Positions 860-52,344 are shown, counted from the stretch's first letter. The stretch is DNA of 64,000 nucleotides from an uncultured Polaromonas sp. (GCA_964371235.1 CAYJMW010000008.1:11055-75054), one strand, 5' to 3'. The notes: generated from the letters alone by a model not told the origin. Made by a program: numbers and translations.

Positions 860-2776
860 TCAGCGCCCGCGCATGAACAGCGCATCCAGTTCTTTGATGC
901 TCACCTGCCGCCAAGTCGGCCGCCCGTGGTTGCACTGGTCCGAGCGCTCGGTGGCCTCCATCTGGCGCAGCAGGGCATTCATTTCGCCCTGCGTGAGCTG
1001 GCGGTTGGCGCGCACGGCGCCGTGGCAGGCCATGGTCGAGAGCAACTCGTTTTGTGCCCGCTGGATCACGGTGCTGGCATCAATCTGTGCCAACTCGGCC
1101 AGCACGCTGCGCGCCAGTTCCACGGCGTCGCCCTGCGCCAGGCTGGTCGGCACGGCGCGCACAGCGAGCGTTCTGGGCGAAAACGGGGTGATTTCCAGGC
1201 CCAGCGTGCCCAGCACTTCGGCGCTGGCCTCGGCGGTTGCCACTTCCTGCGGCGTCGCGGCAAAGGTGACCGGAATCAACAACGGCTGGCTGGCGATGCG
1301 GGAGGAGGTATCGAGCTGGTTTTTCAGCCGCTCATAAACGATGCGCTCATGGGCGGCATGCATATCGACGATAACCAGGCCCTGCGCATTTTCGGCCAGC
1401 ACGTAGATGCCCTGCAACTGGGCGATGGCGCGGCCCAGCGGCCACGGGTTCACTGCCTCTCCTGCCGGGACGGGGCAGGCCTGTCCGGAGCCTGTCGAAG
1501 CGGCCTGTCCTGAGCCTGTCGAAGGAGGTTGAGGGCTGCTCTCCAACCCACTCGGTCCACCGGTTACTGCCGCTCGCGCCGGCCCCCAAAGCGCTTCCAG
1601 GTCGGACGCGTAGTTGCCTCCATTCGCTCCCAAATTAATAGCTGGTTGCGCCCATTCCATATGGGCTAGAGCATGATTTTGCTTGAGAAATCCGCTCCCG
1701 GCGTGCGCAGGGGTGGCTTCGGGTGGCTGGCCTGCCAGCCCTGCCCGTGGCGCCGCCAGCGCATCTTCCGTGGCATGGTGCACCGCCTGGTGTACTTCGC
1801 GGCTGTCCCGAAAGCGCACCTCGATCTTGGTCGGGTGTACGTTAACGTCCACGCGGGCCGGGTCCATTTCGACATACAGCGCGTAGACCGGCTGGCGCTG
1901 GCCGTGCAGAACGTCTTCATAGGCGCTGCGTGCGGCGTGCGTGAGTACCTTGTCGCGCACGTAGCGGCCATTGACATAGGCAAACTGCTGGTCGGCGCGC
2001 GAGCGGGCAGCGTCCGGAATGCCGGCGCGGCCCCAGACCCGCACGGCGGGCCGGCCATCGGCCCGGCGCGCTGCGCTTTCATGGTTGACAGCCACCGATT
2101 GCGTCACAAAGTCGCTGCCCAGCACGTCAACCAGGCGCTGCTCGTGCGCCAACTCACCACTGCGGGCGCGCCATTGCTCGACCAGCCTGCCTTCGTGCCA
2201 GATCGCAAAACCGACATCGGGGCGCACCAGCGCATGGCGGCGCACGGCCTCAATGCAGTGCGCCAGCTCGGTGGCATCGGTTTTCAGGAATTTTCGGCGG
2301 GCCGGCGTGGCGTAAAACAGCTCGCGCACTTCCACGCTGGTGCCGCGGACGCGCGCGGCGGGTTTGATCTCGCCGGTGCGGCCATCGAGTTGCCAGGCAT
2401 GGTCGGCCTCCGGCGTTCTTGACAGCAGGCTGATGTCGGCAATGGAATTGATGGCCGCCAGCGCCTCCCCCCTGAAACCCATGGTGCCGACGGCCTCCAG
2501 CTCTTGCAGCGAGGCGATCTTGCTGGTGGCGTGGCGCTTGAGGGCAATCGCCAGCTCGCCCTGCGCAATGCCCATGCCGTCGTCTTCCACCCCGATCAGG
2601 CGCACGCCACCGGCCAGCAAGCGCACCGTGACTTGTGTGGCCCCGGCATCCAGCGCGTTGTCCAGCAGTTCGCGCACCACCGAGGCTGGCCGCTCGACCA
2701 CTTCGCCGGCAGCAATCTGGCTGATCAACTCGTCGGGAAGTTCGCGGATCGGGCGGCGCGGGGTCTGGGAGGTCAT
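860..2776 (-). CDS. mutL: DNA mismatch repair endonuclease MutL
   Basis: QIAAGEVVERPASVVRELLDN, GFRGEAL, DVNVHPTKIEVRF and C-terminal DMHAAHERIVYE / CNHGRPT endonuclease motifs. Confidence 0.98.
   Translation of the reverse strand: MTSQTPRRPIRELPDELISQIAAGEVVERPASVVRELLDNALDAGATQVTVRLLAGGVRLIGVEDDGMGIAQGELAIALKRHATSKIASLQELEAVGTMGFRGEALAAINSIADISLLSRTPEADHAWQLDGRTGEIKPAARVRGTSVEVRELFYATPARRKFLKTDATELAHCIEAVRRHALVRPDVGFAIWHEGRLVEQWRARSGELAHEQRLVDVLGSDFVTQSVAVNHESAARRADGRPAVRVWGRAGIPDAARSRADQQFAYVNGRYVRDKVLTHAARSAYEDVLHGQRQPVYALYVEMDPARVDVNVHPTKIEVRFRDSREVHQAVHHATEDALAAPRAGLAGQPPEATPAHAGSGFLKQNHALAHMEWAQPAINLGANGGNYASDLEALWGPARAAVTGGPSGLESSPQPPSTGSGQAASTGSGQACPVPAGEAVNPWPLGRAIAQLQGIYVLAENAQGLVIVDMHAAHERIVYERLKNQLDTSSRIASQPLLIPVTFAATPQEVATAEASAEVLGTLGLEITPFSPRTLAVRAVPTSLAQGDAVELARSVLAELAQIDASTVIQRAQNELLSTMACHGAVRANRQLTQGEMNALLRQMEATERSDQCNHGRPTWRQVSIKELDALFMRGR
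1478..1524. repeat. 24-bp-period tandem repeat inside mutL linker
   Basis: GGCCTGTCC[G/T]GAGCCTGTCGAAG at 1478-1500 and 1502-1524, one mismatch; encodes STGSGQA twice. Confidence 0.9.
1626..1680 (+). repeat. 55-bp dispersed element, copy A (in mutL)
   Basis: GCTCC-CAAATTA-ATAGC TGGTTGCGC CCATTCCAT ATGGGCTAG AGCATGATTTT. Confidence 0.8.
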
Positions 2777-2861
2777 GAGCCGGTGATTTTAGGCGCAGCC
2801 CCAGCTTCTCGTGGAACGCCGGGCGAGCGGGGACAAATCCAGACCTGTCAAAATCGCGGCC

Positions 2862-3524
2862 ATGGAACTGGCTGCCTTTCTCTTCGACTTCATCGTCCAC
2901 ATCGACAAACATCTTGAGGTTTTTGTGAGCAGTTACGGCGCATGGGTCTATGCGCTGCTGTTTCTCATCATTTTTGTGGAAACCGGCGTCGTCGTGATGC
3001 CGTTCCTGCCGGGTGATTCGCTGCTGTTTGTGGTGGGCGCCATGTGTGGCGTCGGCTTGCTCAGCTTTCCTCTGGCCCTGGGGCTGCTGTTTGCCGCGGC
3101 CGTGCTGGGCAACCAGTCCAACTACACCATTGGCCACTATTTTGGTCCCAGGGTGTTTCAATGGGAAAACTCAAGATTTTTCAACAAGACGGCATTTAAC
3201 CAGGCCCATGCGTTTTACGAGCGCTACGGCGGCATCACCATCGTGGTGGCGCGCTTCATGCCTTTTTTGCGGACCTTTGCGCCGTTTGTGGCGGGCGTGA
3301 CGCAAATGACGCGCAGCAAATTTACGCTCTACGACATCACCGGAGGCGCGCTCTGGGTCGGCAGCATTGTCACCGTGGGCTACTTCTTTGGCAACGTGCC
3401 CTTTGTCAAGGAGCATCTGGACAAGATCATCTGGGCCATGATCCTGATTCCGGGTCTGGTCATCCTGTGGGGGGGCTGGAAGGCCAGGCGCAGGGCGGCT
3501 CGTTCAGCCGCAAAACAACCCTGA
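2862..3524 (+). CDS. dedA: DedA family membrane protein
   Basis: FVETGVVVMPFLPGDSLLF and ARFMPFLRTFAPFVAG motifs. Confidence 0.93.
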   Translation: MELAAFLFDFIVHIDKHLEVFVSSYGAWVYALLFLIIFVETGVVVMPFLPGDSLLFVVGAMCGVGLLSFPLALGLLFAAAVLGNQSNYTIGHYFGPRVFQWENSRFFNKTAFNQAHAFYERYGGITIVVARFMPFLRTFAPFVAGVTQMTRSKFTLYDITGGALWVGSIVTVGYFFGNVPFVKEHLDKIIWAMILIPGLVILWGGWKARRRAARSAAKQP

Positions 3525-3634
3525 CCAGGAGCTGATTTGCCATCCACGGCGCCGGTTGCGGTGACGTGCCGGAACGCCCGAAATACTGACCGGGCCGCAC
3601 GCTCAATGTCGTCCTGTAGCGGCCCCGCGCGGGT

Positions 3635-6552: not shown

Positions 6553-6584
6553 TTTAATGCAACCCAATTCCAGGAGAATTTCCA

Positions 6585-12632: not shown

Positions 12633-12764
12633 GTGTGCCGGGCCGTGCCCCGCTCAGGGGGTGAGCATGGCGAGCCTTAGAGTGGTTATCGTTGTTCCCT
12701 GACGCCGCCGTGCCTGCTTCGGCAAGGCCAAGCCCCCCGCGCCTCATTCGCCGGTTGCGCGAAT

Positions 12765-13706
12765 GTGAATGGCGGTACGGAAATTTTTGTTATCGTCAAC
12801 ACCATGCCAACACAAAGCCAGCCCAGCATTGATGCGTTTATTGACGCCCTGTGGCTCGAAGATGGGCTGAGCAGGAATACGCTGGACGCTTATCGGCGAG
12901 ACCTTTCGCTGTACGCCGCCTGGCTGGCGGCGCGGAGCCAGGGGGCACGCAAGCTCGATGACACGCTTGAGAGCGATCTCAACGCTTACTTTGCTGCCCG
13001 GCATGCGGTCACCAAGGCGACATCGGCAAATCGGCGGCTGACCGTGTTCAAGCGCTACTTTCGCTGGGCGCTGCGCGAGCGCTTTATTGCCGCGGACCCG
13101 ACCCTGAAGCTGCAATCAGCCAGGCAGGCGTTGCGGGTGCCCAAGCTGATGAGCGAGGCGCAGGTGGAGTCTTTGCTGGCAGCGCCTCGCCAGGACACGG
13201 CGCTTGGGCAGCGCGATCGCGCCATGCTGGAGCTGATGTATGCAAGCGGCCTGCGCGTGAGTGAGCTGGTCGGGCTGAAGACGTTTCACGTGGGTTTGAA
13301 TGAAGGCGTGCTGCGCGTCATGGGCAAGGGCAGCAAGGAGCGGCTGGTGCCCTTCGGGCAGGTGGCGCGCGAGTGGATCGTGCGTTACCTGGCCGAGGCA
13401 CGGCCCACTATTCTGGGTGGCCAGCAGACCGATGACCTGTTCGTGACTGGCCGTGGCCACGGCATGAGCCGGGTGATGTTCTGGATGCTGGTCAAAAAGT
13501 ACGCGCTCCTGGCGGGCATCACTTCCCCGTTGTCACCGCACACCTTGCGCCATGCCTTTGCCACGCATTTGCTCAACCACGGCGCCGACCTGCGCGCCGT
13601 GCAGATGCTGCTCGGGCACGCCGACATTTCCACCACCACAATTTACACCCACGTGGCCCGGGAGCGGCTCAAGGCGCTGCATGCGCAGCACCATCCAAGG
13701 GGTTGA
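12765..13706 (+). CDS. xerD: site-specific tyrosine recombinase XerD
   Basis: LWLEDGLSRNTLDAY, RDRAMLELMYASGLRVSEL, SPHTLRHAFATH and TTIYTHV; start may be ATG at ~12805. Confidence 0.96.
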   Translation: MNGGTEIFVIVNTMPTQSQPSIDAFIDALWLEDGLSRNTLDAYRRDLSLYAAWLAARSQGARKLDDTLESDLNAYFAARHAVTKATSANRRLTVFKRYFRWALRERFIAADPTLKLQSARQALRVPKLMSEAQVESLLAAPRQDTALGQRDRAMLELMYASGLRVSELVGLKTFHVGLNEGVLRVMGKGSKERLVPFGQVAREWIVRYLAEARPTILGGQQTDDLFVTGRGHGMSRVMFWMLVKKYALLAGITSPLSPHTLRHAFATHLLNHGADLRAVQMLLGHADISTTTIYTHVARERLKALHAQHHPRG

Positions 13707-15111: not shown

Positions 15112-15933
15112 TCAGGCGCTGGCACTGAGCAGCGCCAGTTCGGCCTCGTCAAACCCTGCAGCGCGGCGCGCGGCGAGGTTCAGCGGGCCTTTCAGGCGCG
15201 GCGCGCCGTACTGTTTGGCCAGCACCTCATAGGTGGCGAGTGGGTCCAGCCCGCGCTGGGCGCACAAATAGCGGTACCAGCGGTTGCCGGTGGCCACGTG
15301 GCCGATTTCATCGCACAAAATGGTATCCAGAATGTCCACGGCACGCAGCGCATCAGCTGTGCCGACCTTGCGCAGCCTGGCCTGCATCGGCGGCGTGGCA
15401 TCCAGTCCCCGGGCCTCCAGCGTGCGCGGCACCAGAGCCATGCGCGCCAGCACATCGCCTGCGGTTTTCCGGGTCATGTCCCACAGTCCGGTGTGGGCGG
15501 CGAAGTCGCCATAGTCGTAGCCCATGGTCTGCAGGTGGTCGCGCAGCAGGCTGAAGTGCCGCGCTTCTTCTGCGGCCACTTTCAGCCAATCCAGGTAGTA
15601 GGTGCGTGGCATGCCGCCAAAGCGCCAGACGGCGTCCAGCGCCAGATTGATGGCGTTGAACTCGATATGCGTTACGGCATGGATCAGCGCGGCCAGGCCT
15701 TCCGGGGTGAATGGGGAGCGTTTTGGAACATCCAGATGCGACCGCAACTTTGGCCGGGCAGGGCAGCCAGGCAGACCATCGGGGGCCTCAAAATCATCGT
15801 CAATTGCTATCAAAACAGTAGCAGATTGTGTCCACAGGACGTGGGCAAGATGCGCTTTTTGTTGTGGATTTTGCGCCATCAGCGCCTGCAGGGCAAGCTG
15901 GCGCAGTTCCGCGGGTGCAGGCGTGGCAGTCAT
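15112..15933 (-). CDS. ferritin-like domain protein (DUF455 type)
   Basis: HAVTHIEFNAINLALDA, AEEARHF, LVPRTLEARGLD and DEIGHV di-iron motifs. Confidence 0.88.
   Translation of the reverse strand: MTATPAPAELRQLALQALMAQNPQQKAHLAHVLWTQSATVLIAIDDDFEAPDGLPGCPARPKLRSHLDVPKRSPFTPEGLAALIHAVTHIEFNAINLALDAVWRFGGMPRTYYLDWLKVAAEEARHFSLLRDHLQTMGYDYGDFAAHTGLWDMTRKTAGDVLARMALVPRTLEARGLDATPPMQARLRKVGTADALRAVDILDTILCDEIGHVATGNRWYRYLCAQRGLDPLATYEVLAKQYGAPRLKGPLNLAARRAAGFDEAELALLSASA
15806..15860 (+). repeat. 55-bp dispersed element, copy B (in ferritin-like gene)
   Basis: GCTAT-CAAAACA-GTAGC AGATTGTGT CCACAGGAC GTGGGCAAG ATGCGCTTTTT. Confidence 0.8.
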
Positions 15934-26091: not shown

Positions 26092-26337
26092 ATGAACAAG
26101 TCTCTAGTCTTGGCAGCTTTGGTTGCCGCTGTTGCTTTGGCCGCCTGCGGCAAAAAAGAAGAAGCGCCAGCACCTGCACCCGCACCTGTCGTTGTTACGC
26201 CCGCACCTGTGGTGGCTGCACCCGCTCCGGCAGCTGATGCTTCCGCTGCTGCTGGTTCCGCTGCTCCCGCGATGGAGCCCGCCAAGGACGCAAGCGCTGC
26301 TGCGGGCGCTGCCGCTGACGCCGCAAAGAAGCCGTAA
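26092..26337 (+). CDS. small Ala/Pro-rich lipoprotein
   Basis: Lipobox LAAC followed by GKKEEAPAPAP; low-complexity PA repeats; terminator downstream. Confidence 0.85.
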   Translation: MNKSLVLAALVAAVALAACGKKEEAPAPAPAPVVVTPAPVVAAPAPAADASAAAGSAAPAMEPAKDASAAAGAAADAAKKP

Positions 26338-30022: not shown

Positions 30023-30069
30023 ATTAATAGCTAACTATGCCCGTTCTGACTGGGCCACAGGCCAAAAAA
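30015..30069 (+). repeat. 55-bp dispersed element, copy E (overlaps methyltransferase start)
   Basis: ACTAC-CATATTA-ATAGC TAACTATGC CCGTTCTGA CTGGGCCAC AGGCCAAAAAA. Confidence 0.8.
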
Positions 30070-30091
30070 GCTTGTTAAAGATCCGGAAAAG

Positions 30092-31576: not shown

Positions 31577-31623
31577 TTACTTTCGTGGCCCGGATTACAA
31601 TTACGCGCTTCACCCGAACCGCC

Positions 31624-34602: not shown

Positions 34603-36957
34603 ATGGACCTTTTTACGCCCGACGCTCAAGCCCAGAACCCGGAACCCGCTGACGAGGACTGCCTTGCCGCGTACGCGCAGCGCGCTTACCTTGAATACGC
34701 GCTGAGCGTCGTCAAGGGCAGGGCCCTGCCCGATGTGTGCGACGGCCAAAAGCCGGTGCAGCGGCGCATTTTGTACAGCATGGCGCGCATGGGTCTGGGC
34801 TTTGGCGGCGCCAATGGCGCTAGCGGTGCCAGGCCGGTGAAAAGCGCCCGCGTGGTGGGTGATGTGCTGGGCCGCTTCCATCCGCACGGCGACCAGGCCG
34901 CTTACGATGCGCTGGTGCGCATGGCGCAAGACTTTTCACAGCGTTACCCGCTGATTGATGGCCATGGCAACTTTGGCAGCCGTGACGGCGATGGCGCCGC
35001 CGCCATGCGTTACACCGAGGCGCGGCTGGCCCGCATCACCAGCCTGCTCATGGAAGAAATCGATGAGGGCACGGTGGAGTTCGTGCCCAACTACGATGGA
35101 TCGACCGAGGAGCCCAGCCAGCTCCCGGCACGCCTGCCATTCACGCTGCTTAACGGCGCCAGCGGCATTGCCGTGGGACTGGCCACCGAAATTCCCAGCC
35201 ACAACCTGCGCGAGGTGGCCGACGCCTGCGTTGCCCTGATCAAGACCCCCAAGCTCGGTGATGATGAGTTGTACACACTGATCGCCGGGCCCGACTACCC
35301 GGGCGGCGGGCAAATCATTTCAAACCCCGCGGACATCGCGGCGGCGTACAGCACCGGACGGGGTTCGCTCAAGGTGCGCGCGCGCTGGAAGATTGAGGAC
35401 CTGGCGCGCGGCCAGTGGCGGCTGGTGGTGCAGGAGCTGCCGCCCGGTGTCAGCACGCAGCGGGTGCTGGAAGAAATTGAAGAGCTGACCAATCCCAAGA
35501 TCAAGGCCGGCAAAAAAACACTCAGCCAGGATCAGGTGCAACTCAAGCAGACGATTCTGACCGTGCTCGACGTGGTGCGCGACGAATCGAGCAAGGACGC
35601 CGCCGTGCGCCTGGTCTTTGAGCCCAAGAGCAGCAAGATCGGGCAAATGGAGCTCATCAACACCCTGCTGGCGCACACCAGCCTGGAGAGTTCCTCCTCC
35701 ATCAACCTGACCATGGTCGGGCTCGATGGCAAGCCGACGCAAAAGTCCCTGCGGCAAATGCTGACGGAGTGGCTGGCGTTCCGCCAGACCACGGTGCAGC
35801 GGCGCTCGCAGCATCGCCTCACCAGGGTATTGGACCGCATTCATATTCTGGAGGGGCGGCAGTTGGTGCTGCTCAATATCGATGAGGTGATTGCCCTCAT
35901 CCGCCAGTCCGACGAGCCCAAAGCCGCGTTGATTGCGGGCTTCAAGTTAAGCGACCGGCAGGCCGAAGACATTCTTGAAATCCGCCTGCGCCAACTGGCC
36001 CGGCTCGAAGCCATCAAGATTGAGCAGGAGCTTAAAACCCTGCGCGAGGAGCAAGGCAAGCTCGAAGAAATTCTGGGCAGTCCGGCGGTGTTGCGCAGGT
36101 TGCTGATCAAGGAAATTGAAGCCGATGCCAAGCAGTTTGCCGACCCGCGCCGCACACTGATCCAGGCCGACAAAAAGGCCGCGCTCGAAATCAGGGTGCC
36201 CGACGAGCCGGTCACGGTGGTGGTCAGCAGCAAGGGTTGGGTGCGCGCCCGGGGCGGGCACGGGCATGATGCGGCCAGCTTTGCCTTCAAGCCGGGCGAC
36301 GCGCTTTACGGCACGTTTGAATGCCGCACGGTCGACACCTTGCTGGTGTTTGGCAGCAACGGCCGGGTGTACTCCGTGCCCGTGGCCATGTTGCCCGGCG
36401 CACGCGGCGATGGCCAGCCGCTGACCACCCTGATCGAGCTGGAATCAGGAACGCAGATGCTGCATTATTTTGCCGGGCCCGCCGCTGCCGTGCTGCTGCT
36501 GTCCAGTTCGGGCGGCTACGGATTTCTGGCCACGCTGGAGAGCATGATTTCACGCAACAAGAGCGGCAAGGCCTTCATCAGTCTGGGCGAGGGTGAAACC
36601 GCCTGCCGTCCCTCGCATGCGCAGGGCAGCACGGGTGCGCAACCGCTGCCGCCCGCCACGCATGTGGCCTGTGCGTCAACTGGCGGGCGCATCCTCACAT
36701 TCGAGATCGGCGAACTCAAGCAGATGGACAAGGGCGGGCGCGGCCTCATGCTCATCGACCTGGAGCCCAAAGACACGCTGGCGGGCGCGGCGGCTTATAC
36801 CCGCAGTGTGAAAATTGAAGGCGTAGGGCGCGGCGGCAAAGCGCGCGAGGAAACGCTGGAAATCCGCAGTTTGAACAATGCCCGGGCCGCCCGGGCCCGC
36901 AAAGGCAAGGCGGCTGATCTGGGCTTCAAGCCGACTTCGATCACACGGGTTGAGTAA
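34603..36957 (+). CDS. parC: DNA topoisomerase IV subunit A
   Basis: DGQKPVQRR, KSARVVG, HPHGDQAAY and AAAMRYTEARL. Confidence 0.97.
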   Translation: MDLFTPDAQAQNPEPADEDCLAAYAQRAYLEYALSVVKGRALPDVCDGQKPVQRRILYSMARMGLGFGGANGASGARPVKSARVVGDVLGRFHPHGDQAAYDALVRMAQDFSQRYPLIDGHGNFGSRDGDGAAAMRYTEARLARITSLLMEEIDEGTVEFVPNYDGSTEEPSQLPARLPFTLLNGASGIAVGLATEIPSHNLREVADACVALIKTPKLGDDELYTLIAGPDYPGGGQIISNPADIAAAYSTGRGSLKVRARWKIEDLARGQWRLVVQELPPGVSTQRVLEEIEELTNPKIKAGKKTLSQDQVQLKQTILTVLDVVRDESSKDAAVRLVFEPKSSKIGQMELINTLLAHTSLESSSSINLTMVGLDGKPTQKSLRQMLTEWLAFRQTTVQRRSQHRLTRVLDRIHILEGRQLVLLNIDEVIALIRQSDEPKAALIAGFKLSDRQAEDILEIRLRQLARLEAIKIEQELKTLREEQGKLEEILGSPAVLRRLLIKEIEADAKQFADPRRTLIQADKKAALEIRVPDEPVTVVVSSKGWVRARGGHGHDAASFAFKPGDALYGTFECRTVDTLLVFGSNGRVYSVPVAMLPGARGDGQPLTTLIELESGTQMLHYFAGPAAAVLLLSSSGGYGFLATLESMISRNKSGKAFISLGEGETACRPSHAQGSTGAQPLPPATHVACASTGGRILTFEIGELKQMDKGGRGLMLIDLEPKDTLAGAAAYTRSVKIEGVGRGGKAREETLEIRSLNNARAARARKGKAADLGFKPTSITRVE

Positions 36958-38359: not shown

Positions 38360-40996
38360 ATGGACTTAGCGGCGACAGCCAGACTTCGAGCAGGCAGCGT
38401 GAGCCCCGGCTTTCTTTTCAGCGGTTTCATTGCCGGGGTGGCGCTGCAACTGCAGCAGGCCAGCCTGTGGCAGGGCGTGGGGTATGCCACGCTAGCGGCG
38501 CTGGGCGGTGCGCTGGTGGGGGTTCTATATGCTGCCGCGGCGAGAAGAAACTTTCGCGGCGCCGGATGGGCTGTTTTACTGAGCACAGCGCTGCTGGGTT
38601 TCGGCGTAACAGGTTGGCGGGCCAGCGCTTTTCAGTCCACCACATTGAACCCGGCGCTGGAAGGGCGCGACATTGTGGTGACTGGCGCCGTGCTGGCAAT
38701 GCCGCAGCCCGGTCAGGACGGGGTGCGTTTTCGCCTTGGCATCGAATCGGCCCGTCTCAACGGGCAGCCCGTGACCCTGCCGCCGCAGCTTCTGCTAGGC
38801 TGGTATGCGGGTTTTGGTGTGCGGGAGGCCAAAAGTTCGGCACTGGAAAGTGCTGATCCTTCCGAGTTGGAGCTGGCCTTGCAGCGCCAGCCGCAAACCC
38901 TGCGTGCCGGCGAGCGCTGGCGCATGACGGTGCGGCTCAAGGCGCCGCATGGCAACAGCAACCCTCATGGTTTTGACTACGAGCTCTGGCTGTGGGAGCA
39001 GGGCATTCAGGCCACCGGCTATGTGCGAGCCGGGCCGCACGATGCGCCACCTGTCAAACTCTCCAGCAGTTGGGCGCATCCGGTTGAGCGCGTCCGCCAG
39101 TCGGTGCGTGAAGCCATCTATGAGCGCGTCGAAAACCGGCCACTCGCCGGTGTGCTGGCCGCGCTGGTGGTGGGTGATCAAAACGCCATTGAGCGCGCCG
39201 ACTGGGATGTTTTCCGGGCGACGGGCGTGGCGCATCTGATGAGCATTTCTGGCCTGCACATCACCATGTTCGCGTGGCTTGCGTCCCTGCTGCTGAGCAG
39301 TCTGTGGCGGCGCTCCGCCCGGCTGACGCCGCGGCTTTGCCTGGCGCTGCCGGCCAGCAGCGCTGGTGCCTTGGGTGGGCTTGTCCTGGCTGCCCTGTAC
39401 GCGCTGTTCTCCGGCTGGGGCGTGCCGGCCCAGCGCACCATCTGGATGCTGGCGACGGTCGTGCTGCTGCGGCAAAGCGGCAAGCAGTGGCCCTGGCCGC
39501 AAATATGGCTGCTGGCCATGGCCGTGGTGGTGGCGCTGGATCCCTGGGCCCTGATGCAGGCCGGGTTCTGGCTGTCGTTTGTGGCGGTGGGTGTGCTCTT
39601 TGCCGCCGGGCCGTCCCAAGGCAAAGAAGCCCCCCCGGGGGGCAGCGACCCACACGCAGTGGATGAGCGTGGGGGCCATCTTGCTACAGATTCAGGAGCT
39701 GATCACGTAAGTGGTACAAGGGCTGGCGGCCAATTTGACTCACAAAATGGGGTTGATCCCTGGTATTGGCGACCCTGGCTGGCCAAACCCCTGGCCGGCC
39801 TGATGCGTGCCGCCCATGAGCAATGGGTGGTCACGCTGGCGCTTACCCCCTTGTCTCTGCTGCTGTTCAATCAGGTGTCGCTGGTTGGCTTGCTGGCCAA
39901 TGCGGTGGCGATTCCCTGGGTCACCCTGCTGGTCACGCCGCTGGCCATGCTGGGCGTGCTGTGGGCTCCGGTGTGGGACGTGGCGGCATGGGCGGTCGGC
40001 TTGCTGGCGGCGTTTTTGCAGTGGCTGGCCGCATGGCCGCTGGCTTCCCTCAGTGTGGCCGCGGCGCCGCTGTGGTGCGCTGTGGCAGGCGTGCTGGGCG
40101 GCGGCCTGCTGGCCTTGCGGCTGCCGTGGCACTGGCGCGTGCTGGGCCTTCCGCTGCTGCTGCCGGTGCTGCTGTGGCAGCCCGCGCGCCCGGCCCCCGG
40201 GCAGTTTGAACTGCTGGCCGCCGACATCGGGCAGGGCAATGCGGTCCTGGTGCGCACCGCCAGCCATGCGCTGCTGTACGACACCGGCCCGCGGTTTTCA
40301 CGCGAGAGTGATGCCGGCAACCGCGTGCTGGTGCCGCTGTTGCGCGCGCTGGGCGAGAAGGTGGACATGCTGGTGTTGAGCCACCGTGACGGCGACCATA
40401 CCGGCGGCGCGCCCGCCGTGCTGGCGATGCAGCCGCAGGCCAGCTTGCTCAGCTCGATTGAAGACGCGCACGAGTTGCAGGCGCTGCGCAAGGCCACCCG
40501 CTGCGTGGCGGGCCAGCGCTGGAATTGGGACGCGGTGACTTTTGAAGTGCTGCATCCGGCGCTGGCTGATTACGAGGTGGCCAACAAATCAAACGCCATG
40601 AGCTGCGTGCTGCGTGTTTCCAACGGCAACCAGACCGCGCTGCTGGTGGGAGATCTGGAGTCCGCGCAGGAACTCAGGCTGGCGTCAGGCACCGACTCTG
40701 CCCGCTTGCAGGCCAACTTCCTGCTGATGCCGCACCATGGCAGCAAAACCTCATCGAGCGGGCCGTTTCTGGATGCGGTGCAGCCGCAACTGGCGCTGGC
40801 GCAGGCGGGTTACCGCAACCGCTTTGGCCACCCGGTCGAATCGGTGCTGGCGCGCTACCGGGAGCGCGGCATCCGGCTGGTCAAGTCGCCACAGTGCGGG
40901 GCCGCGACCTGGCAAAGCCTCAAACCCGGCGACATCACCTGCCAGCGGCAAGAGGGCCAGCGCTACTGGCATCATGTGATCGGGATGGATAAATAG
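38360..40996 (+). CDS. comEC: DNA internalization competence protein ComEC/Rec2
   Basis: NPHGFDYE, HLMSISGLH, GFWLSFVAV, DIGQGNA, SHRDGDH and PHHGSKTSS. Confidence 0.95.
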   Translation: MDLAATARLRAGSVSPGFLFSGFIAGVALQLQQASLWQGVGYATLAALGGALVGVLYAAAARRNFRGAGWAVLLSTALLGFGVTGWRASAFQSTTLNPALEGRDIVVTGAVLAMPQPGQDGVRFRLGIESARLNGQPVTLPPQLLLGWYAGFGVREAKSSALESADPSELELALQRQPQTLRAGERWRMTVRLKAPHGNSNPHGFDYELWLWEQGIQATGYVRAGPHDAPPVKLSSSWAHPVERVRQSVREAIYERVENRPLAGVLAALVVGDQNAIERADWDVFRATGVAHLMSISGLHITMFAWLASLLLSSLWRRSARLTPRLCLALPASSAGALGGLVLAALYALFSGWGVPAQRTIWMLATVVLLRQSGKQWPWPQIWLLAMAVVVALDPWALMQAGFWLSFVAVGVLFAAGPSQGKEAPPGGSDPHAVDERGGHLATDSGADHVSGTRAGGQFDSQNGVDPWYWRPWLAKPLAGLMRAAHEQWVVTLALTPLSLLLFNQVSLVGLLANAVAIPWVTLLVTPLAMLGVLWAPVWDVAAWAVGLLAAFLQWLAAWPLASLSVAAAPLWCAVAGVLGGGLLALRLPWHWRVLGLPLLLPVLLWQPARPAPGQFELLAADIGQGNAVLVRTASHALLYDTGPRFSRESDAGNRVLVPLLRALGEKVDMLVLSHRDGDHTGGAPAVLAMQPQASLLSSIEDAHELQALRKATRCVAGQRWNWDAVTFEVLHPALADYEVANKSNAMSCVLRVSNGNQTALLVGDLESAQELRLASGTDSARLQANFLLMPHHGSKTSSSGPFLDAVQPQLALAQAGYRNRFGHPVESVLARYRERGIRLVKSPQCGAATWQSLKPGDITCQRQEGQRYWHHVIGMDK
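39605..39676 (+). repeat. GC-rich palindromic element inside comEC loop
   Basis: GCCGGGCCGTCCCAAGG...GCCCCCCCGGGGGGCAGCGACCCACACGCAGTGGATGAGCGTGGGGGC; C7/G6 hairpin and GCCCCC...GGGGGC inverted ends. Confidence 0.55.
39683..39737 (+). repeat. 55-bp dispersed element, copy G (in comEC)
   Basis: GCTAC-AGATTCA-GGAGC TGATCACGT AAGTGGTAC AAGGGCTGG CGGCCAATTTG. Confidence 0.75.
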
Positions 40997-41092: not shown

Positions 41093-42595
41093 ATGAGCCG
41101 CCCGATGTTTGATGAGATGAATGCCACGCCGTCCAGCGTCCGTGCGCACTACCAGAGCTATCAGCGCTGGCTGGCCCGGCAATCGGCCGAGGGGATGCAG
41201 GCGCGCCGGGCTGAGGCGGAAATGATTTTCCGCCGGGTCGGAATCACCTTTGCCGTGTACGGTGTCAAAGACGCAGTCGGGAGCGATGAAAATGGCGGTA
41301 CCGAGCGGCTGATTCCGTTTGACCTGATTCCCCGCATCATTCCGGCGCATGAATGGGCCAGCATGGAGCGTGGCCTGGTGCAGCGCGTCACCGCGCTCAA
41401 CCGCTTCATTCACGATGTTTATCACGGGCAGGAGATCATCAAGGCGGGTGTGATTCCGTCGGAGCAGATTTTCCAGAACGCGCAGTTCCGGCCCGAGATG
41501 ATGAATGTGGACGTGCCGGGCAACATTTACTCGCACATCAGCGGCATCGACATCGTTCGCGCGCCCAATGCGCAGGGCGAGGGCGAGTACTACGTGCTTG
41601 AAGACAACCTGCGCGTTCCCAGCGGAGTCAGCTACATGCTGGAAGACCGCAAGATGATGATGCGGCTGTTTCCCGAGCTCTTCAGCGAGAACCGCGTGGC
41701 CCCGGTGGCGCATTACCCGGACTTGCTGCTGGAAACCCTGCGCTCCATGGCGCCGCCCGCCACCGCCGATCCCACCGTTGTGGTGCTCACCCCCGGCATG
41801 TACAACTCGGCCTACTTTGAACACGCCTTCCTGGCGCAGCAAATGGGTGTGCAACTGGTCGAGGGGCAAGACCTGTTTGTCAAGGACAACTTTGTCTATA
41901 TGCGCACTACCCGCGGCCCCAGACGCGTCGATGTGATTTACCGCCGCGTGGACGATGACTATCTCGACCCGCTGGCTTTTCGGCCCACCTCCACCCTGGG
42001 CTGCGCGGGCCTGCTCAATGTTTATCGCAGCGGCAACGTCTCGCTGTGCAACGCCATCGGAACCGGCGTGGCCGATGACAAGTCGATTTATCCCTACGTG
42101 CCGAAAATGATCGAGTTCTACCTCGGCGAAAAACCCCTCCTCAACAACGTGCCAACCTACCTCTGCCGCAACAGTGAAGACCTGCGGTACACCCTGGCCC
42201 ACCTGAAGGACCTGGTGGTCAAGGAAGTGCATGGCGCGGGCGGCTACGGCATGCTGGTGGGGCCAGCGGCATCGCAGACTGAAATTGAAGACTTTCGCAA
42301 AGCGCTGCTGGCCAACCCGTCGGGTTACATTGCCCAGCCCACGCTCAGCCTCTCGACCTGCCCCACCTATGTTGAAAGCGGCATTGCACCGCGACACATT
42401 GACTTGCGGCCTTTTGTGCTGAGTGGCAAAGTGGTCCAGATGGTGCCCGGCGGCCTGACGCGAGTCGCGCTGAAAGAAGGCTCGCTGGTCGTCAATTCAT
42501 CGCAGGGCGGCGGCACCAAGGACACCTGGGTTTTGCAGGGCGACCCCGCCGTAAACATGCAGTCGTCGTTGTCAAAGGCTGGAGGAATCCCATGA
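41093..42595 (+). CDS. circularly permuted type 2 ATP-grasp protein
   Basis: RRVGITFAVY, VLEDNLRVPSGVSY, NSAYFEH, DVIYRRVDD, GTGVADDK and NSSQGGGTKDTW. Confidence 0.93.
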   Translation: MSRPMFDEMNATPSSVRAHYQSYQRWLARQSAEGMQARRAEAEMIFRRVGITFAVYGVKDAVGSDENGGTERLIPFDLIPRIIPAHEWASMERGLVQRVTALNRFIHDVYHGQEIIKAGVIPSEQIFQNAQFRPEMMNVDVPGNIYSHISGIDIVRAPNAQGEGEYYVLEDNLRVPSGVSYMLEDRKMMMRLFPELFSENRVAPVAHYPDLLLETLRSMAPPATADPTVVVLTPGMYNSAYFEHAFLAQQMGVQLVEGQDLFVKDNFVYMRTTRGPRRVDVIYRRVDDDYLDPLAFRPTSTLGCAGLLNVYRSGNVSLCNAIGTGVADDKSIYPYVPKMIEFYLGEKPLLNNVPTYLCRNSEDLRYTLAHLKDLVVKEVHGAGGYGMLVGPAASQTEIEDFRKALLANPSGYIAQPTLSLSTCPTYVESGIAPRHIDLRPFVLSGKVVQMVPGGLTRVALKEGSLVVNSSQGGGTKDTWVLQGDPAVNMQSSLSKAGGIP

Positions 42596-42756
42596 TGTTA
42601 TCTCGCACCGCCGATCATTTGTTCTGGATGTCGCGTTATATGGAGCGCGCCGGCGATATGCCGCAGGCATTCGCGGGGATGACTCATCAACTGCGCGAAG
42701 CGCTTGTGATGTCATCACCAAAATACGCAAAGCGCGTAAGCGCTTTCGGTGTTTGA
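42592..42756 (+). pseudogene. truncated duplicate of the alpha-E gene 5' end (54-aa ORF)
   Basis: 42595-42652 matches 42776-42833 at 55/58 nt; translates as MMLSRTADHLFWMSRYMERA followed by an unrelated tail; TGA at 42754-56. Confidence 0.8.
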
Positions 42757-42775: not shown

Positions 42776-43738
42776 ATGTTATCTCGCACCGCCGATCACC
42801 TTTTCTGGATGTCGCGTTATATGGAGCGCGCCGAAAACACCGCCCGCATGCTCGATGTGAACTACCAGACTTCACTGCTGCCGCAATCGGCTGCCGTGGC
42901 GCAACTCGGCTGGCAGGGGCTGCTCAGCATCAGTGAGCTCAAGCAGGACTACGCCGAAAAGCATGGCGACGGCGTCAAGCCGCGCGACGTGATGGACTTC
43001 ATGGTGCGCGATGAAAAAAACGCGTCCAGCATCATCTCGTGCCTGCGCAATGCCCGCGAAAACGCCCGCGCCGTGCGCGGCACGCTCACCACCGAGGTGT
43101 GGGAAACGCAAAACCAGACCTATCTGGAAGTCATGCGCATGTTGCGTCAAGGCGATTTCGAACGCGATCCGACCCAGTTTTTTGAATGGGTCAAATTCCG
43201 CTCGCACCTGTCGCGCGGCGTCACGGTGGGCACCATGCTGCAAGACGATGCGTTTCACTTTCTGCGGCTGGGCACTTTTCTGGAGCGTGCCGACAATACC
43301 GCCCGCCTGGTGGACGTGAAGTTTCATGCCGTGCCGGGCGACTATCTGGGCAGCGCCAGCGTGCAGGATCAGGAATACGATTTTTACCACTGGAGCGCCA
43401 TTTTGCGCAGCGTCTCGGGTTTCGAGGTGTACCGCAAGGTGTACCGCGACATCATCAAGCCCGAGCGCGTGGCCGAGTTGCTGATTTTGCGCGCCGACAT
43501 GCCGCGCTCGCTGCTGGCCTGTCTGAACGAGGTGATGCACAACCTCCTCAGCGTGACCAGCGACGCGCAAAGCGAAACCCAGCGCCGCGCCGGCAAATTG
43601 CGCACCGAGCTGCAGTACGCCCGAATCGACGAAATTCTGGCAACCGGCCTGCATGCCTATCTGACCCAGTTTCTTGATCGGGTCAACGAGCTGGGCGTGC
43701 ACATCAGCCGTGAGTTTCTGGTGCCGGCGACCCATTGA
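42776..43738 (+). CDS. alpha-E domain protein (DUF403)
   Basis: MLSRTADHLFWMSRYMERAEN, second ER motif GTFLERADN; RBS AGGAGG. Confidence 0.93.
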   Translation: MLSRTADHLFWMSRYMERAENTARMLDVNYQTSLLPQSAAVAQLGWQGLLSISELKQDYAEKHGDGVKPRDVMDFMVRDEKNASSIISCLRNARENARAVRGTLTTEVWETQNQTYLEVMRMLRQGDFERDPTQFFEWVKFRSHLSRGVTVGTMLQDDAFHFLRLGTFLERADNTARLVDVKFHAVPGDYLGSASVQDQEYDFYHWSAILRSVSGFEVYRKVYRDIIKPERVAELLILRADMPRSLLACLNEVMHNLLSVTSDAQSETQRRAGKLRTELQYARIDEILATGLHAYLTQFLDRVNELGVHISREFLVPATH

Positions 43739-43778: not shown

Positions 43779-44600
43779 ATGAAGCTGCACATTCGGCACA
43801 CCACCGATTACCGCTACACCGAGCCGCTGCGTTACGCGTTGCAAACGCTCTGGCTCACGCCGCAGTCCGGCCCGGCGCAAACAGTGCATTTCTGGAGCCT
43901 GGGCGCGCCCGGAGAACTGTTTGCCCAGCGCGACGCCTTTGGCAACAGCGTTCATTCCTACAGCTTTGTCAGCCAGAGCGCTGACAACGTGCGCTGGAGC
44001 CTGGTCAATGCGGCCGGCCAGGTTGAGACCTTCGGCGTGGCCGAATTCACCGATGCTCAAGCATTGCCGCATCCGGATTTCTTTTTGCGCGCCACGCAAC
44101 TGGCCCGGCCGAGCCCGCTGCTGGCTGATTTTGGCCGCCGCTTTGTGCGCCTTTCAGGCCCGCCGGGGACGGCTGACTTGAGCATGCTTTTGGCCCTTAG
44201 CCAAGGTGTAGCGGGCGCAGTCAGCTATAAAAAGTATAGTACCGATGTCACCACCACGGCGCTCCAGGCGTTTGAAGCCGGTGCCGGTGTGTGCCAGGAT
44301 CAGGCGCATGTGATGGTTGCAGTCTGCCGCAGCCTGGGCCTGCCGGCGCGCTACGTGAGCGGCTATTTTTACGCCGCCAACGAGCCCGACCTGGCCAGCC
44401 ACGCCTGGGTCGATGTCTGCCTGGATGTGGCCGGCAGGCGCTGGGTCAGCATTGACGTGACCCACAGTTGCCTGATAGACGAGCGCCATGTGCGGCTGGC
44501 CATGGGCACCGACTACAACTCATGCCCGCCCATCAAGGGCGTGCGCCAGGGCGGTGGCGAGGAATCCATGACCGTCACGATCACGATTGAGCCGGTTTGA
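43779..44600 (+). CDS. transglutaminase-like protein
   Basis: HTTDYRY, GVCQDQAH (catalytic Cys), ARYVSGY, SHAWVDV and SIDVTH. Confidence 0.93.
   Translation: MKLHIRHTTDYRYTEPLRYALQTLWLTPQSGPAQTVHFWSLGAPGELFAQRDAFGNSVHSYSFVSQSADNVRWSLVNAAGQVETFGVAEFTDAQALPHPDFFLRATQLARPSPLLADFGRRFVRLSGPPGTADLSMLLALSQGVAGAVSYKKYSTDVTTTALQAFEAGAGVCQDQAHVMVAVCRSLGLPARYVSGYFYAANEPDLASHAWVDVCLDVAGRRWVSIDVTHSCLIDERHVRLAMGTDYNSCPPIKGVRQGGGEESMTVTITIEPV
44186..44240 (-). repeat. 55-bp dispersed element, copy H (in transglutaminase)
   Basis: Minus strand: ACTAT-ACTTTTT-ATAGC TGACTGCGC CCGCTACAC CTTGGCTAA GGGCCAAAAG. Confidence 0.75.
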
Positions 44601-48026: not shown

Positions 48027-48056
48027 CTGACCGATTTTTTAACGAGGAGTAATGAG

Positions 48057-49031: not shown

Positions 49032-51601
49032 CGCGTGCCGTTGACGCCGGGTTGCTGGTTCAGGAGGCCGACCTCGGCGGGCGCATGCCCTCCGGGGCGG
49101 TGCGGCGTCTGCTGTCGTCAACGTGCATCGCCTGGTCAGTGTTGCAGCTCTGGTACGCGTCGCCGCTGCCCTTCATCTTCAACGTCCTGGTGCTCAACAC
49201 CACCGAGATGCGCGCGCTGCATCTTGGTTTTGCGCTTTTTCTTGCATTTCTCGCGTTTCCGTTCGCCATGCGCTCGCCGCGCAATCGCATTCCGGTCCCC
49301 GACTGGGTGTTCGCCCTGGTGGCGGCGTTCTGCGGCGCGTATCTGTTTTTTTTCTACCGGGAAATCTCGACGCGGCCGGGCGAGCCGACGATGTTCGACA
49401 TCGTCACCGCGGTTGTCGGCATGGGTTTGCTGCTGGAAGCCACGCGCAGGGTCGTCGGACCCCCGCTGGCGATCATCTCGATCCTGATGCTTGTTTACGC
49501 GTTTGCGGGGCCGTACATGCCCGACGTGATCGCCCACAAGGGGGTCTCACTGAGCAAGGCGGTGTCGCACTTCTGGCTCACCACCGAAGGTGTGTTCGGC
49601 GTCGCGCTAGGCGTCTCGGCGAGCTATATTTTCCTGTTCGTGCTGTTCGGTTCGCTGCTCGAGAAGGCTGGCGCCGGCAATTACTTTATCAAGCTCGCCT
49701 TCTCGCTGCTCGGGCATATGCGCGGCGGACCGGCCAAGGCGGCCGTGGTCTCGTCGGGATTGATGGGAATGATATCGGGCTCGTCGGTTGCGAATGTTGT
49801 GACCTGCGGCACTTTCACGATCCCGCTGATGAAGCGTGTCGGCTATTCACCCGAGAAAGCCGGCGCGATCGAAGTTGCCGCCGGGGTTGATGGTCAGATC
49901 ATGCCGCCGGTGATGGGCGCGGCGGCCTTCCTGATGGCTGAATACGTTGGTGTTCCGTATGCGGAGATTGTCAAGAACGCATTTTTGCCGGCCATTATTT
50001 CGTACATCGCGCTCTTCTACATCGTGCACCTTGAGGCCTGCAAGGCCGGCATCAAGGGCATCCCGCGCAGCGGCAGCTTTTCGCCAATGCACCGGCTGCT
50101 CGGCATCGTGATGACGCTGGCTGGCGCCGTGGTGCTGGCCAATGTTGTCTATTACGGCATTGGCTGGATCAAGACCTTTGCCGGTGACGGATCGCTCTGG
50201 GTCATCCTGGCGCTGGTCGCGGCGGCCTACCTGCTGATTTTGCGGACGGTCGCGGCCGAGCCCGATCTGACCATCGACGACCCCAATGCGCCGGTGATCG
50301 AACTGCCGCCGCTCAAGGAAACGCTGCTTGCGGGCCTGCACTATCTGCTGCCGGTGGTGCTGCTGATCTGGACGCTGCTGGTCGAAAACCTTTCGCCAGG
50401 GCTCTCGGCGTTTTACGCCAGCCTGCTCCTGATCGCGATTTTGCTGACGCAAAAGCCACTGCTGGCGTGGTTTCGCAACGAACCGCTATCGCTTGCGGTG
50501 TACCGCGCTGGCTGGGACGACTTCATCGACGGCCTTGAGCGAGGCGCGCGCAACATGATCGGCATCGGACTGGCAACCGCGGCGGCCGGCATCGTCGTCG
50601 GCACCGTGTCGCTGACCGGCCTTGGCCTCGTGATGACTGATTTCGTCGAAGTGGTTTCAGCCGGCAACATCATGGGCATGCTGTTCCTGGTCGCGTTCAT
50701 CTGCCTCGTGCTCGGCATGGGCATGCCGACCACCGCGAGCTATATCGTCGTGTCAACCCTGATGGCGCCGGTCGTGGTCGAACTCGGCGCGCAGTCGGGG
50801 CTGGTTGTTCCTTTGGTGGCGGTTCACATGTTTGTGTTCTATTTCGGTCTCATGGCCGATGTAACGCCGCCGGTCGGGCTGGCATCATTTGCCGCCGCGG
50901 CAATCTCGCGCGCCGACCCGATCCGCACCGGCATCACGGCGTTCTGGTACAGCAGCCGCACCCTGATCCTGCCGTTCATGTTCATCTTCAACCCGCAGCT
51001 CCTGATGGTCGGCGTCAATTCAATCCCGCAACTGGTGATGATTGTCGCCGCGGCGATTGTCGCGATGTTGCTGTTCGCTGCCGCAACGCAGGGCTGGTTT
51101 GTCACGCGCAGTCGCTGGTACGAGTCTGTCGTGCTGCTGCTGGTCACCTTCACGTTGCTGCGCCCCGGTTTCTGGGTTGACCTGGCGCTGCAGAAATACG
51201 ACGTGCTCGCGCCTGCGCAGCTGACTGAACTGGCTGCCGCGGCACCGCCGGGCGGCAGCTTGCGGGTACGCATTGAAGGTACGACCGTCGAGGGCAAGGA
51301 TGTCCACAAAACCGTGCTGCTGCCGCTCGCCGATGTTGGCAGCGGCGCGCAGCGCATCGCCAAAGCCGGGATCAGCGTGATGGCGCTGCCGGCCGGACTG
51401 CAGGTCATGTCGGTTTCCCTGAAGAGTCCGGCGCAAAAAGCCGGCTTTGAGCAGGGCTTCGTGGTGACCGGTGTCGAAGTCGAGCGTGTCCGACCGGCCA
51501 AGGAGTGGCTGTACCCGCCTGCCTTGCTGCTGGCCGCGATCATCTTCGGCCTGCAGCGCATCAGGGTGCGGCGCGCGGCAACTGCCCCGGCAGCAGCCTG
51601 A
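49028..51601 (+). CDS. TAXI-TRAP fused permease with C-terminal extension
   Basis: [29 protein letters not shown] and [10 protein letters not shown]. Confidence 0.92.
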
Positions 51602-51617
51602 AAGCGCGCCCGCGGCC

Positions 51618-52262
51618 ATGCCCAGGATTGCCCTGATTCACGCACTGAGTCATTCGGTGGCACCCATCAACCAGGCCTTTGCGCGCGACTGGCCCGAGGC
51701 CACGCGCATGAACCTGCTCGACGACAGTCTGTCGGCTGACCTGGCTGCCAGCGGGCGCGGGCTGGACGCCGCCGTGCACGAACGCTTTGCGCGCCTGGCG
51801 CAATATGCCGTGGACTGCGGCAGTGACGCAATTTTGTTCACCTGCTCGGCTTTTGGCCCCTGCATCGAGGCCGTCGCGCGGCAGCACGCGAGCCTGCCTG
51901 TGCTCAAGCCCAACGAGGCCATGATTTCCGACGCGGTGGCCAGCGGTCAACGCATCGGTCTGGTCGCTACTTTCGGGCCGACGCTGGAGGCTATGCCGCG
52001 CGAGTTCCCGGTCGGCGTCATGCCCGATTGCGCACTAGCCACGGGCGCGCTGCAAGCGCTCAATGCAGGTCAGCTGGAAACCCACGATGCGCTGATTGCC
52101 GCGGCCGCCACGCAACTGGCGCGGCGCGGCGCGGGCGTGATTGCGCTGGCGCAGTTCAGCATGGCGCGCGCGCAAGCGCTGGTGGCGCAACGCACCGGTC
52201 TGCCGGTGCTGACCACGGTGGACAGCGCGCTGCGCGAGCTGCGCCGCCGCCTCGGTGGGTAA
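51618..52262 (+). CDS. Asp/Glu/hydantoin racemase-superfamily protein
   Basis: FTCSAFG, PVLKPNEAM, RIGLVATF and IALAQFSM. Confidence 0.8.
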   Translation: MPRIALIHALSHSVAPINQAFARDWPEATRMNLLDDSLSADLAASGRGLDAAVHERFARLAQYAVDCGSDAILFTCSAFGPCIEAVARQHASLPVLKPNEAMISDAVASGQRIGLVATFGPTLEAMPREFPVGVMPDCALATGALQALNAGQLETHDALIAAAATQLARRGAGVIALAQFSMARAQALVAQRTGLPVLTTVDSALRELRRRLGG

Positions 52263-52289
52263 CGCGCAATGTTTTCTGAACCTGCAAGA

Positions 52290-52344
52290 AAAAACAGCCT
52301 GTAGCCCTCATGGAACGTACGCAGTATGCTATAAAAAAAGTAGC
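52290..52344 (-). repeat. 55-bp dispersed element, copy F (intergenic)
   Basis: Minus strand: GCTAC-TTTTTTT-ATAGC ATACTGCGT ACGTTCCAT GAGGGCTAC AGGCTGTTTTT. Confidence 0.85.

Follow-up and report, generated by a model that had tools for sequence, protein, structure and literature searches.

A composite repeat of about 65 bp in genes and spacers of Polaromonas and other Comamonadaceae, a candidate DNA recognition feature

The window and its eight repeat copies

We analysed a 64-kb stretch of DNA from an uncultured Polaromonas sp. (GCA_964371235.1 CAYJMW010000008.1:11055-75054), here called the window, which carries eight copies of a degenerate repeat of about 65-70 bp that we name E. An earlier interpretation made from the sequence alone (the sequence-only reading) had proposed these segments as one family; all eight are present where it placed them, and they align without gaps once three of them (those beginning at 22962, 44186 and 52290) are reverse-complemented. 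As it had also stated, six copies lie inside real genes, whose identities we assigned with Pfam: mutL, a DUF455 (ferritin-like) gene, coaBC, an S-adenosylmethionine (SAM)-dependent methyltransferase gene, comEC and a transglutaminase-like gene. None of the six interrupts its reading frame, and four are read in one and the same frame with the shared peptide pattern that had been described. Five copies are on the plus strand and three on the minus strand, and the gaps between successive copies (14.2, 7.2, 6.8, 0.2, 9.7, 4.5 and 8.1 kb) are too few to judge regularity.

The family is much stronger than chance. In leave-one-out searches with nhmmer, every omitted copy returned as the eighth-best match of the window (E-values of 1e-7 to 2e-3), with the next background match at about 0.3. 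A hidden Markov model (HMM) trained solely on intergenic copies from other genomes, without the window copies, gave significant scores to seven of the eight. Four exact matches to the palindrome GCTAY-N7-RTAGC are present in the window against 0.01 expected from shuffles. The sequence-only reading had offered codon-preserving shuffles as a possible refutation; in 300 synonymous-codon shuffles of each of the six E-bearing genes, scored with a weight matrix likewise derived from intergenic copies of other genomes alone, the real score exceeded every shuffle in all six genes, with z between 4.4 and 10.8. The best sub-threshold match in the window, at 63257-63302 on the minus strand, covers the left half of E (palindrome plus GCTGC) with an E-value of 0.3-0.55 and is either a decayed copy or a chance match.

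In the following account of the individual copies, the bit scores of the eight window copies are those of the intergenic-only HMM. Copy 1 (1623-1694, plus) runs antisense in mutL (860-2776, minus) with 48.8 bits and a shuffle z of 7.3. It encodes residues ~365-385 in the interdomain linker of MutL (KQNHALAHMEWAQPAINLGAN), and in each of the 24 aligned MutL proteins of Polaromonas the peptide N.AFAQQGWAQPAINF.AN forms a conserved island within a linker that is variable elsewhere. Copy 2 (15804-15863, plus) is antisense in the DUF455 gene (15112-15933, minus), where it covers residues 24-44 of the N-terminal region; its 7.1 bits at 15803-15850 are weak alone, and its orthologues in other species reach 46.3 bits. 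Copy 3 (22959-23018, minus) is antisense in coaBC (22154-23452, plus) at residues ~269-289 of the CoaB domain, with a shuffle z of 5.2 and an HMM match at 22984-23018 of 19.2 bits. Copy 4 (29812-29872, plus) is antisense in the methyltransferase gene (29393-30022, minus) with 20.7 bits, and encodes residues 51-71, comprising the post-motif-I strand (...LALVDRSQSAIESIAL); orthologous copies score up to 48.8 bits.

Copy 5 (30013-30079, plus) occupies the spacer between a major facilitator superfamily (MFS) gene and the same methyltransferase gene, scoring 30.0 bits at 30016-30079. The start codon of the methyltransferase (CAT on this strand, 30020-30022) sits in the AT-rich spacer of the palindrome, and this layout recurs in 15 other species, with the start codon being that of a methyltransferase or a short-chain dehydrogenase/reductase gene. 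Copy 6 (39681-39750, plus) is sense in comEC (38360-40996, plus) with 32.8 bits and a shuffle z of 10.8. It lies in the loop between ComEC membrane segments (ATDSGA...GQFDSQN), and the pattern ATDSGA....R...A.GQFDS.N is kept in nearly all of the 70 orthologues aligned. Copy 7 (44184-44242, minus) is antisense in the transglutaminase-like gene (43779-44600, plus), scores 27.4 bits at 44185-44241 with a shuffle z of 4.7, and is read in a different frame (MLLALSQGVAGAVSYKKYST). Copy 8 (52289-52347, minus; 22.9 bits at 52290-52347) is intergenic between convergent genes identified by Pfam, one for an Asp/Glu racemase family protein (51471-52262, plus) and one for an S4-domain protein (52348-52773, minus).

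Genic copies and their codons

We compared the window with 80 species-level genomes, nearly all of Polaromonas, represented by 1.35 Mb of loci (CoaBC 77-86% identical to that of the window), and with a wider sample drawn by a pattern scan of metagenome contigs, which gave 120 loci with 143 significant E copies. All six genic copies of the window recur at orthologous codons throughout Polaromonas: E lies at the same codon across the genus at 67 loci for coaBC and 26 loci for DUF455, and at 49 loci for the methyltransferase region. A separate match between an E-carrying 857-aa FtsX-domain gene of P. naphthalenivorans CJ2 and an 857-aa gene of the window was rejected as orthology, as the two are unrelated (12.6% identity).

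The sequence-only reading had likened E to the Rickettsia palindromic elements (RPEs), that is, to a palindromic element inserted in frame into genes. The open frames, four of them shared, agree with such a model, and so do the mutL and comEC copies, whose positions (a linker and a loop, respectively) make an ancient insertion conceivable. Against it, four of the six genic copies (CoaBC, methyltransferase, DUF455 and transglutaminase-like protein) show no change in length, and the same holds for EarP in the metagenome sample. The E segment of CoaBC aligns without gaps to the E. coli and M. smegmatis proteins and also to the E-free proteins of Variovorax and Caenimonas, with a plainly homologous peptide. 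In the methyltransferase, E falls inside the Methyltransf_25/Rossmann domain (Pfam) with no extra length and no gaps among species; in DUF455 it encodes the native N-terminal helix of the family, with zero gaps over 34 species and the peptide also present in Variovorax; and the transglutaminase-like protein has no indel at E relative to 19 family representatives. Among the metagenome loci, E lies in a conserved domain of EarP that is gapless against P. aeruginosa EarP, and by Pfam coordinates inside conserved domains of a heptosyltransferase, an AMP-binding enzyme and GpsA. In TilS of the same sample, the six residues before the E-coded AQAAIKSIA are missing from the E. coli protein.

Residues encoded by E have homologous counterparts in E-free relatives, as a comparison of an E-bearing with an E-poor coaBC (loci L026 and L032) shows: the 22 codons compared differ at 22 nucleotides, encode 17 identical residues and align without a gap. 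In the mutL linker and the comEC loop, E is fixed in every MutL and nearly every ComEC orthologue examined, amid variable sequence, and the conserved and variable residues of these proteins mirror the conserved and variable blocks of the E DNA family. A true in-frame insertion behaves differently, as seen in comEC itself, where the Betaproteobacterial repeat element (BRE) lengthens the protein by 27 residues and varies from one orthologue to another. In-frame insertion of E is thus contradicted for four of the six genic copies and appears highly improbable. As judged from these alignments, genic E is most readily understood as spelled into pre-existing codons through synonymous and conservative substitutions, not inserted. 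The earlier statement that E occupies coding sequence is borne out for the six window copies; most copies elsewhere are intergenic, and the genic ones are not insertions.

The codons at these sites are also constrained. Across E-bearing Polaromonas, coaBC keeps rare AT-ending codons in the E segment (GCA GCT ACT GTT TTT ATA GCA ACT), and the codons just outside vary freely. Third-position A+T content (AT3) is 0.60-0.74 in the E segment, compared with 0.1-0.35 over most of the gene and 0.22-0.31 in the corresponding segment of E-poor relatives, and synonymous-codon entropy is 0.63-0.72, compared with ~1.0-1.4 in the rest of the gene and 0.97-1.4 in the segment of the E-poor relatives. In coaBC, DUF455 and the methyltransferase, AT3 reaches its gene-wide peak within the E segment. 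DUF455 also resembles coaBC in having a lower synonymous entropy at E than elsewhere; in the methyltransferase, with seven species compared, the E segment shows no such reduction.

Some lineages have lost this spelling. The loci with a GC-rich coaBC spelling (L010, L014, L032, L040, L049, L075, L078 and L082) carry no other E, and E-bearing loci usually carry one to five; in the E-poor species the coaBC segment has the same length and encodes the same peptide with other codons. In strain YR568 a 13.7-bit remnant in mutL is all that was found in 22 kb. At the DUF455 and coaBC sites that correspond to those of Polaromonas, Variovorax paradoxus (L081; 1240-1267 and the coaBC segment) carries no more than E's left half, the palindrome followed by AGCTGC (TTGCTA-N7/8-TAGCWGC). 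The presence of the left half alone in this species suggests that the palindrome module predates the genus Polaromonas.

Distribution, anatomy and neighbouring repeats

Within the 1.35 Mb of Polaromonas loci, E occupies at least 24 distinct sites. Its density is about one per 8-13 kb, with eight copies in the window and 105 matches in the 1.35 Mb. The E-bearing metagenome contigs range from 52 to 72% GC, the high-GC ones carrying the dialect ATAGCTGCCTGCGCCCGCCACGCAAGGGCTGGAGGCC, and a gene flanking E on one high-GC contig has its closest named relatives in Ottowia, Variovorax, Ramlibacter and Xenophilus. This GC range and the Ottowia/Variovorax-like contig indicate that E belongs to the Comamonadaceae and not to one species, so that the lineage-wide family supposed by the sequence-only reading is indeed found in Polaromonas and other members of the family.

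The distribution between replicons is stark. The chromosome of P. naphthalenivorans CJ2 carries three E copies in 22 kb; four 50-kb stretches (200 kb) of its plasmids pPNAP01 and pPNAP02 carry none (best match at an E-value of 0.33), although 15-27 copies would be expected there at the chromosomal density (P(0) <= 2e-7). A blastn search of the consensus against the 72,556 plasmids of PLSDB likewise returned no match. Sixteen viral contigs fit the core pattern, few of them with full copies, which probably lie in host flanks, and are not informative.

The genomic context was tabulated for 117 strong metagenome copies, all counts being approximate. Between co-directional genes, 22 copies are antisense and 20 sense to both neighbours, an absence of strand preference that argues against a function as RNA. 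A further 13 lie between convergent and four between divergent genes. About a quarter (25) are inside predicted genes, 17 antisense and eight sense, an excess that arises because the reverse complement of the consensus leaves more frames open. Twelve overlap gene ends, and 21 were unclassifiable as they lie at a contig edge or beside uncalled genes. Many E copies abut stop or start codons, and some occur as inverted pairs (e.g., L005 5758(+) and 5913(-)).

From an alignment of about 50 intergenic copies with their flanks, we derived the consensus taaTTGCTAT-N7-ATAGCTGCTTGCGCCCGT-N7-GGGCTAGAGGCC-N-ATTTGACt...AAAA, ~65-70 bp in length. E is thus a composite of GC-rich blocks alternating with A/T tracts and includes a 17-bp palindrome with an AT-rich spacer. 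The same alignment revealed no terminal inverted repeats and no conservation outside the element, and target-site duplications were absent in comparisons of filled with empty spacers.

Two short palindromes followed by a T-rich tract, together with copies placed directly after stop codons or over start codons with the ATG in the palindrome spacer, might recall an RNA device, such as a terminator, a processing or stabilising hairpin, a small-RNA or antisense-RNA module, or a translation-initiation element. The structural tests speak against this. The inner hairpin with a compensatory pair that the sequence-only reading had pointed out is literally present in copies 1 and 2, but is not a property of the family: for a hand-drawn three-helix model over 56 copies and 500 shuffles, pairing was 76.3% against 76.2% in the shuffles (238 of 500 as high), and covariation scored 0.148, compared with 0.137 in the shuffles, 78 of which reached that value. 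Given 180 copies, RNAalifold predicted essentially no consensus structure in either orientation, with weak partial stems in two subsets; single-sequence folding was barely under the shuffled level (mean z of about -0.8); and one pair of the second stem is never formed in the coaBC copies. Rfam gave no match at gathering thresholds and none overlapping E copies even at E-values up to 10. Sigma-70, sigma-54 and extracytoplasmic function (ECF) promoters, sought by eye in both orientations, were represented only by a TTGAC resembling a -35 element at the 3' end, unaccompanied by a conserved -10. The absence of covariation, of transcriptional strand bias and of an Rfam match indicates that E acts as double-stranded DNA, in agreement with its earlier description as a DNA element, and a role as RNA, for which sense and antisense copies would not be expected to be equally frequent between co-directional genes, is very unlikely.

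The earlier statement that the window encodes no mobilising enzyme also held: Pfam searches of its main open reading frames (ORFs) detected no transposase or Y1/RAYT (REP-associated tyrosine transposase), only a XerD-like recombinase (12765-13706). No transposase or RAYT was seen beside those E copies whose surroundings were examined. Elsewhere in the window, the parE-like (31585-33594) and parC-like (34603-36957) topoisomerase IV genes are split by an SLT-domain transglycosylase gene, and there is no E in that 5 kb.

Several other repeats occur in the vicinity of E. Directly 5' of copy 6, comEC contains at 39596-39680 (plus) an 81-bp GC-rich in-frame insertion (AAGPSQGKEAPPGGSDPHAVDERGGHL) that matches BRE and is absent, single or tandemly duplicated among the Polaromonas ComEC orthologues. 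BRE copies are most numerous in Polaromonas (Hot et al. 2011, PMC3110155). We ruled out that E is itself this published element, as it has no similarity to the BRE sequences of the supplement of that study. Both occur in Polaromonas and other Betaproteobacteria with some copies within coding sequence; however, BRE is GC-rich (69%), ~80-90 bp long, often tandem and a true polymorphic in-frame insertion. BRE-related copies were also observed at other loci, e.g., two copies 82 nt apart at L076.

A 58-nt direct repeat (42595-42652 and 42776-42833; 95% identical, 181 nt apart) resembles a duplicated gene start: its second copy starts an Alpha-E domain gene (MLSRTADHLFWMSRYMERA), and its first overlaps the last stop-codon base of a circularly permuted ATP-grasp gene and extends beyond it. 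Short tandem and overlapping GCT/GCC-rich repeats, coding for Ala/Ser-rich sequence, lie in an ORF at 26218-26324, with similar ones at 40141-40181. Downstream of dut (L021:11700-14600; also L005, L008, L029 and L046) is a variable region in which E is interspersed with toxin-antitoxin-like cassettes. These include a PIN/VapC-like ORF and an AbiEii-like nucleotidyltransferase with a helix-turn-helix partner, with a ~165-nt repeated unit with 40-nt inverted arms between them; the layout resembles a cassette array, and an integron integrase was not seen in it. A classical hairpin resembling REP (repetitive extragenic palindromic) sequences, GTCGGGTTA(C/G)CG..CGCTAACCCGAC followed by CTAC, stands beside E copies (L021:11913-11950 and 12663-12700; also L029, L008, L069 and L005) and constitutes a separate family in the same genomes.

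Readings of the repeat and known systems

From the fixation of genic copies, the constraint on AT3 and synonymous sites, the decay in E-poor species, the lack of plasmid copies and the lack of signs of RNA function, we infer that E is a double-stranded chromosomal DNA recognition feature kept by a genome-wide, sequence-directed process. In its general form, as an account that is non-insertional and at the level of DNA, this reading seems to us very probable. As to the process itself, our analysis tentatively favours a molecular drive of the DNA-uptake-signal type, to which we would assign clearly less than an even chance. E-carrying DNA would be preferred by a DNA-binding component of the host, which plausibly belongs to the type IV pilus/competence apparatus, and fragments with better matches to E would be taken up and recombined more often. 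Under such preferred uptake, E-like spellings would spread wherever the protein tolerates them and would be kept across species. Genic copies without indels, orthologous conservation, dialects, scarcity in plasmids and decay form the set of properties of a drive by biased uptake, which is what points to this process. In its most specific form, E would be a self-DNA uptake signal of transformable Comamonadaceae, a new and much longer class that rewrites synonymous sites in hundreds of core genes; this we regard as doubtful, if conceivable. Two genera of the family, Acidovorax and Verminephrobacter, are naturally transformable; in Acidovorax no transformants were obtained with DNA of another Acidovorax species, and for Verminephrobacter sequence-specific uptake was suggested by the authors, with no uptake sequence reported for either genus (PMC4212676). 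The presence of comEC in the window was counted toward the plausibility of uptake specificity.

Several observations weigh against uptake-driven maintenance. Uptake signals described so far are built around a core of 9-12 bp (~30 bp with flanks), with about one copy per kb; E is conserved over ~65 bp, which makes it five times longer, and is about ten times sparser. The 17-bp palindrome and its AT-rich spacer recall the operator bound by a dimeric DNA-binding protein more than a target of a pilin. A spacer that contains E in some species can be ~90-115 bp shorter in its orthologues elsewhere, deletion and insertion being indistinguishable, and these block differences look like indels rather than the product of a point-mutational drive. 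Further, to our knowledge transformation is undemonstrated in Polaromonas, and the gene contexts given above come from a crude home-made gene caller. On account of the length, sparseness, operator-like palindrome and block turnover, we give the uptake reading no more than the probability stated above.

The same palindrome, dimer-like and set beside asymmetric conserved blocks split by A/T tracts, would suit a binding site for an abundant chromosomal protein or complex (a nucleoid-associated protein, gyrase/topoisomerase, or a partition or occlusion factor) kept by purifying selection. The DNA-level and orientation-independent behaviour of E, its position-conserved sites with constrained synonymous positions, its restriction to the chromosome and its preference for gene ends and convergent spacers (13 convergent against four divergent) are all compatible with this, parS, matS and the Noc/SlmA sites are textbook precedents for sites within genes, and strong gyrase/topoisomerase sites have reportedly been proposed for the E. 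coli REPs and bacterial interspersed mosaic elements (BIMEs). However, selection acting site by site on hundreds of 65-bp sites would be costly; architectural sites known from within genes measure 12-16 bp, with tens rather than hundreds in a genome; no candidate protein can be named; and the E-poor Polaromonas lineages apparently manage without E. We thus consider a selected binding site possible, though somewhat doubtful. The gain or loss of intergenic E as blocks is the main point for a mobile component, namely a selfish non-autonomous repeat of the REP type or of the MITE (miniature inverted-repeat transposable element) type, multiplied by an enzyme encoded elsewhere, whose genic copies would have arisen by short-patch ectopic conversion or illegitimate replacement and survived where the peptide was tolerated. 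As in MITEs, related species differ in whether an intergenic site is occupied; inverted pairs occur, copies fill short spacers near stop and start codons, and there are many copies with lineage-specific expansion and loss. Yet E has neither terminal inverted repeats nor target-site duplications, there is no transposase or RAYT in the window or beside the copies examined, E is missing from the resident plasmids of the E-rich CJ2, and its hairpins are without covariation support. The absence of terminal repeats and target duplications and the lack of covariation also undo the analogy with REP sequences and RAYT that the sequence-only reading had drawn, as does the location of six of the eight window copies in genes when REPs are extragenic. 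The genic copies are, moreover, ancient, orthologous and of low synonymous variation, and the last feature indicates that they are not neutral relics, which would have decayed. A selfish repeat thus appears unlikely as the explanation of E.

If E is a maintained mark on chromosomal DNA, many essential genes, coaBC, mutL, tilS and earP among them, would carry a 65-bp non-coding instruction on top of their protein code, held in place across a genus by a DNA-reading process. E would then be a candidate for the sequence specificity of transformation in the Comamonadaceae, or failing that a chromosomal binding site of a new type. Local clusters of rare codons and of synonymous sites that do not vary, which analyses of codon usage and selection would otherwise misread, would also be accounted for. 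In comEC, a single gene would contrast two modes of occupation, by an inserting repeat (BRE) and by a repeat written by substitution (E). On the practical side, E could serve to mark core chromosomal as opposed to plasmid DNA in metagenomic bins of Comamonadaceae.

A full-text literature search with four strings from the E core sequence found nothing; E appears to be undescribed, and its mode of occupying genes appears unusual. Like E, the RPEs are a repeat family found in many unrelated protein genes with the frame open; in contrast to E, they add ~30-50 residues, whereas four of the six genic E copies, and that of EarP, leave the protein length unchanged, and E is fixed at orthologous codons with constrained synonymous sites. 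With REP/BIME, and with the REP doublets forming hairpins (REPINs) and their RAYTs, E shares the hundreds of short chromosomal repeats, the location in gene-end and convergent spacers and the occurrence of some inverted pairs, and the E. coli REPs have been proposed as protein-binding sites (for gyrase and IHF). It differs in that a quarter or more of E is genic, with about 25 of 106 classifiable copies of the metagenome sample lying in predicted genes, and in having palindrome arms of 5 bp with no covariation and no RAYT in the window, where REPs have long, structurally conserved stems and a GTAG-type head. The cyanobacterial HIP1 motif and the parS, matS and Noc/SlmA sites are, like E, DNA motifs tolerated or selected in coding sequence with protein length unchanged, but they are 8-16 bp long, and we know of no composite motif as long as ~65 bp that is spelled into codons.

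The closest parallels are with the uptake signal sequences (USS) of Pasteurellaceae and the DNA uptake sequences (DUS) of Neisseriaceae. These differ from E in being 9-12 bp long, against ~65 bp of blocks in E, and in occurring about once per kb, against once per 8-13 kb; further, E has a 17-bp palindrome, and intergenic E turns over as blocks. In common with E, the USS and DUS are in excess on their own chromosome, occur in both orientations and often lie behind genes. They are likewise accommodated in coding DNA without indels by way of tolerated codons and peptides, are conserved at orthologous positions, form family-level dialects, and are scarce in plasmids and foreign DNA, as is E in plasmids.

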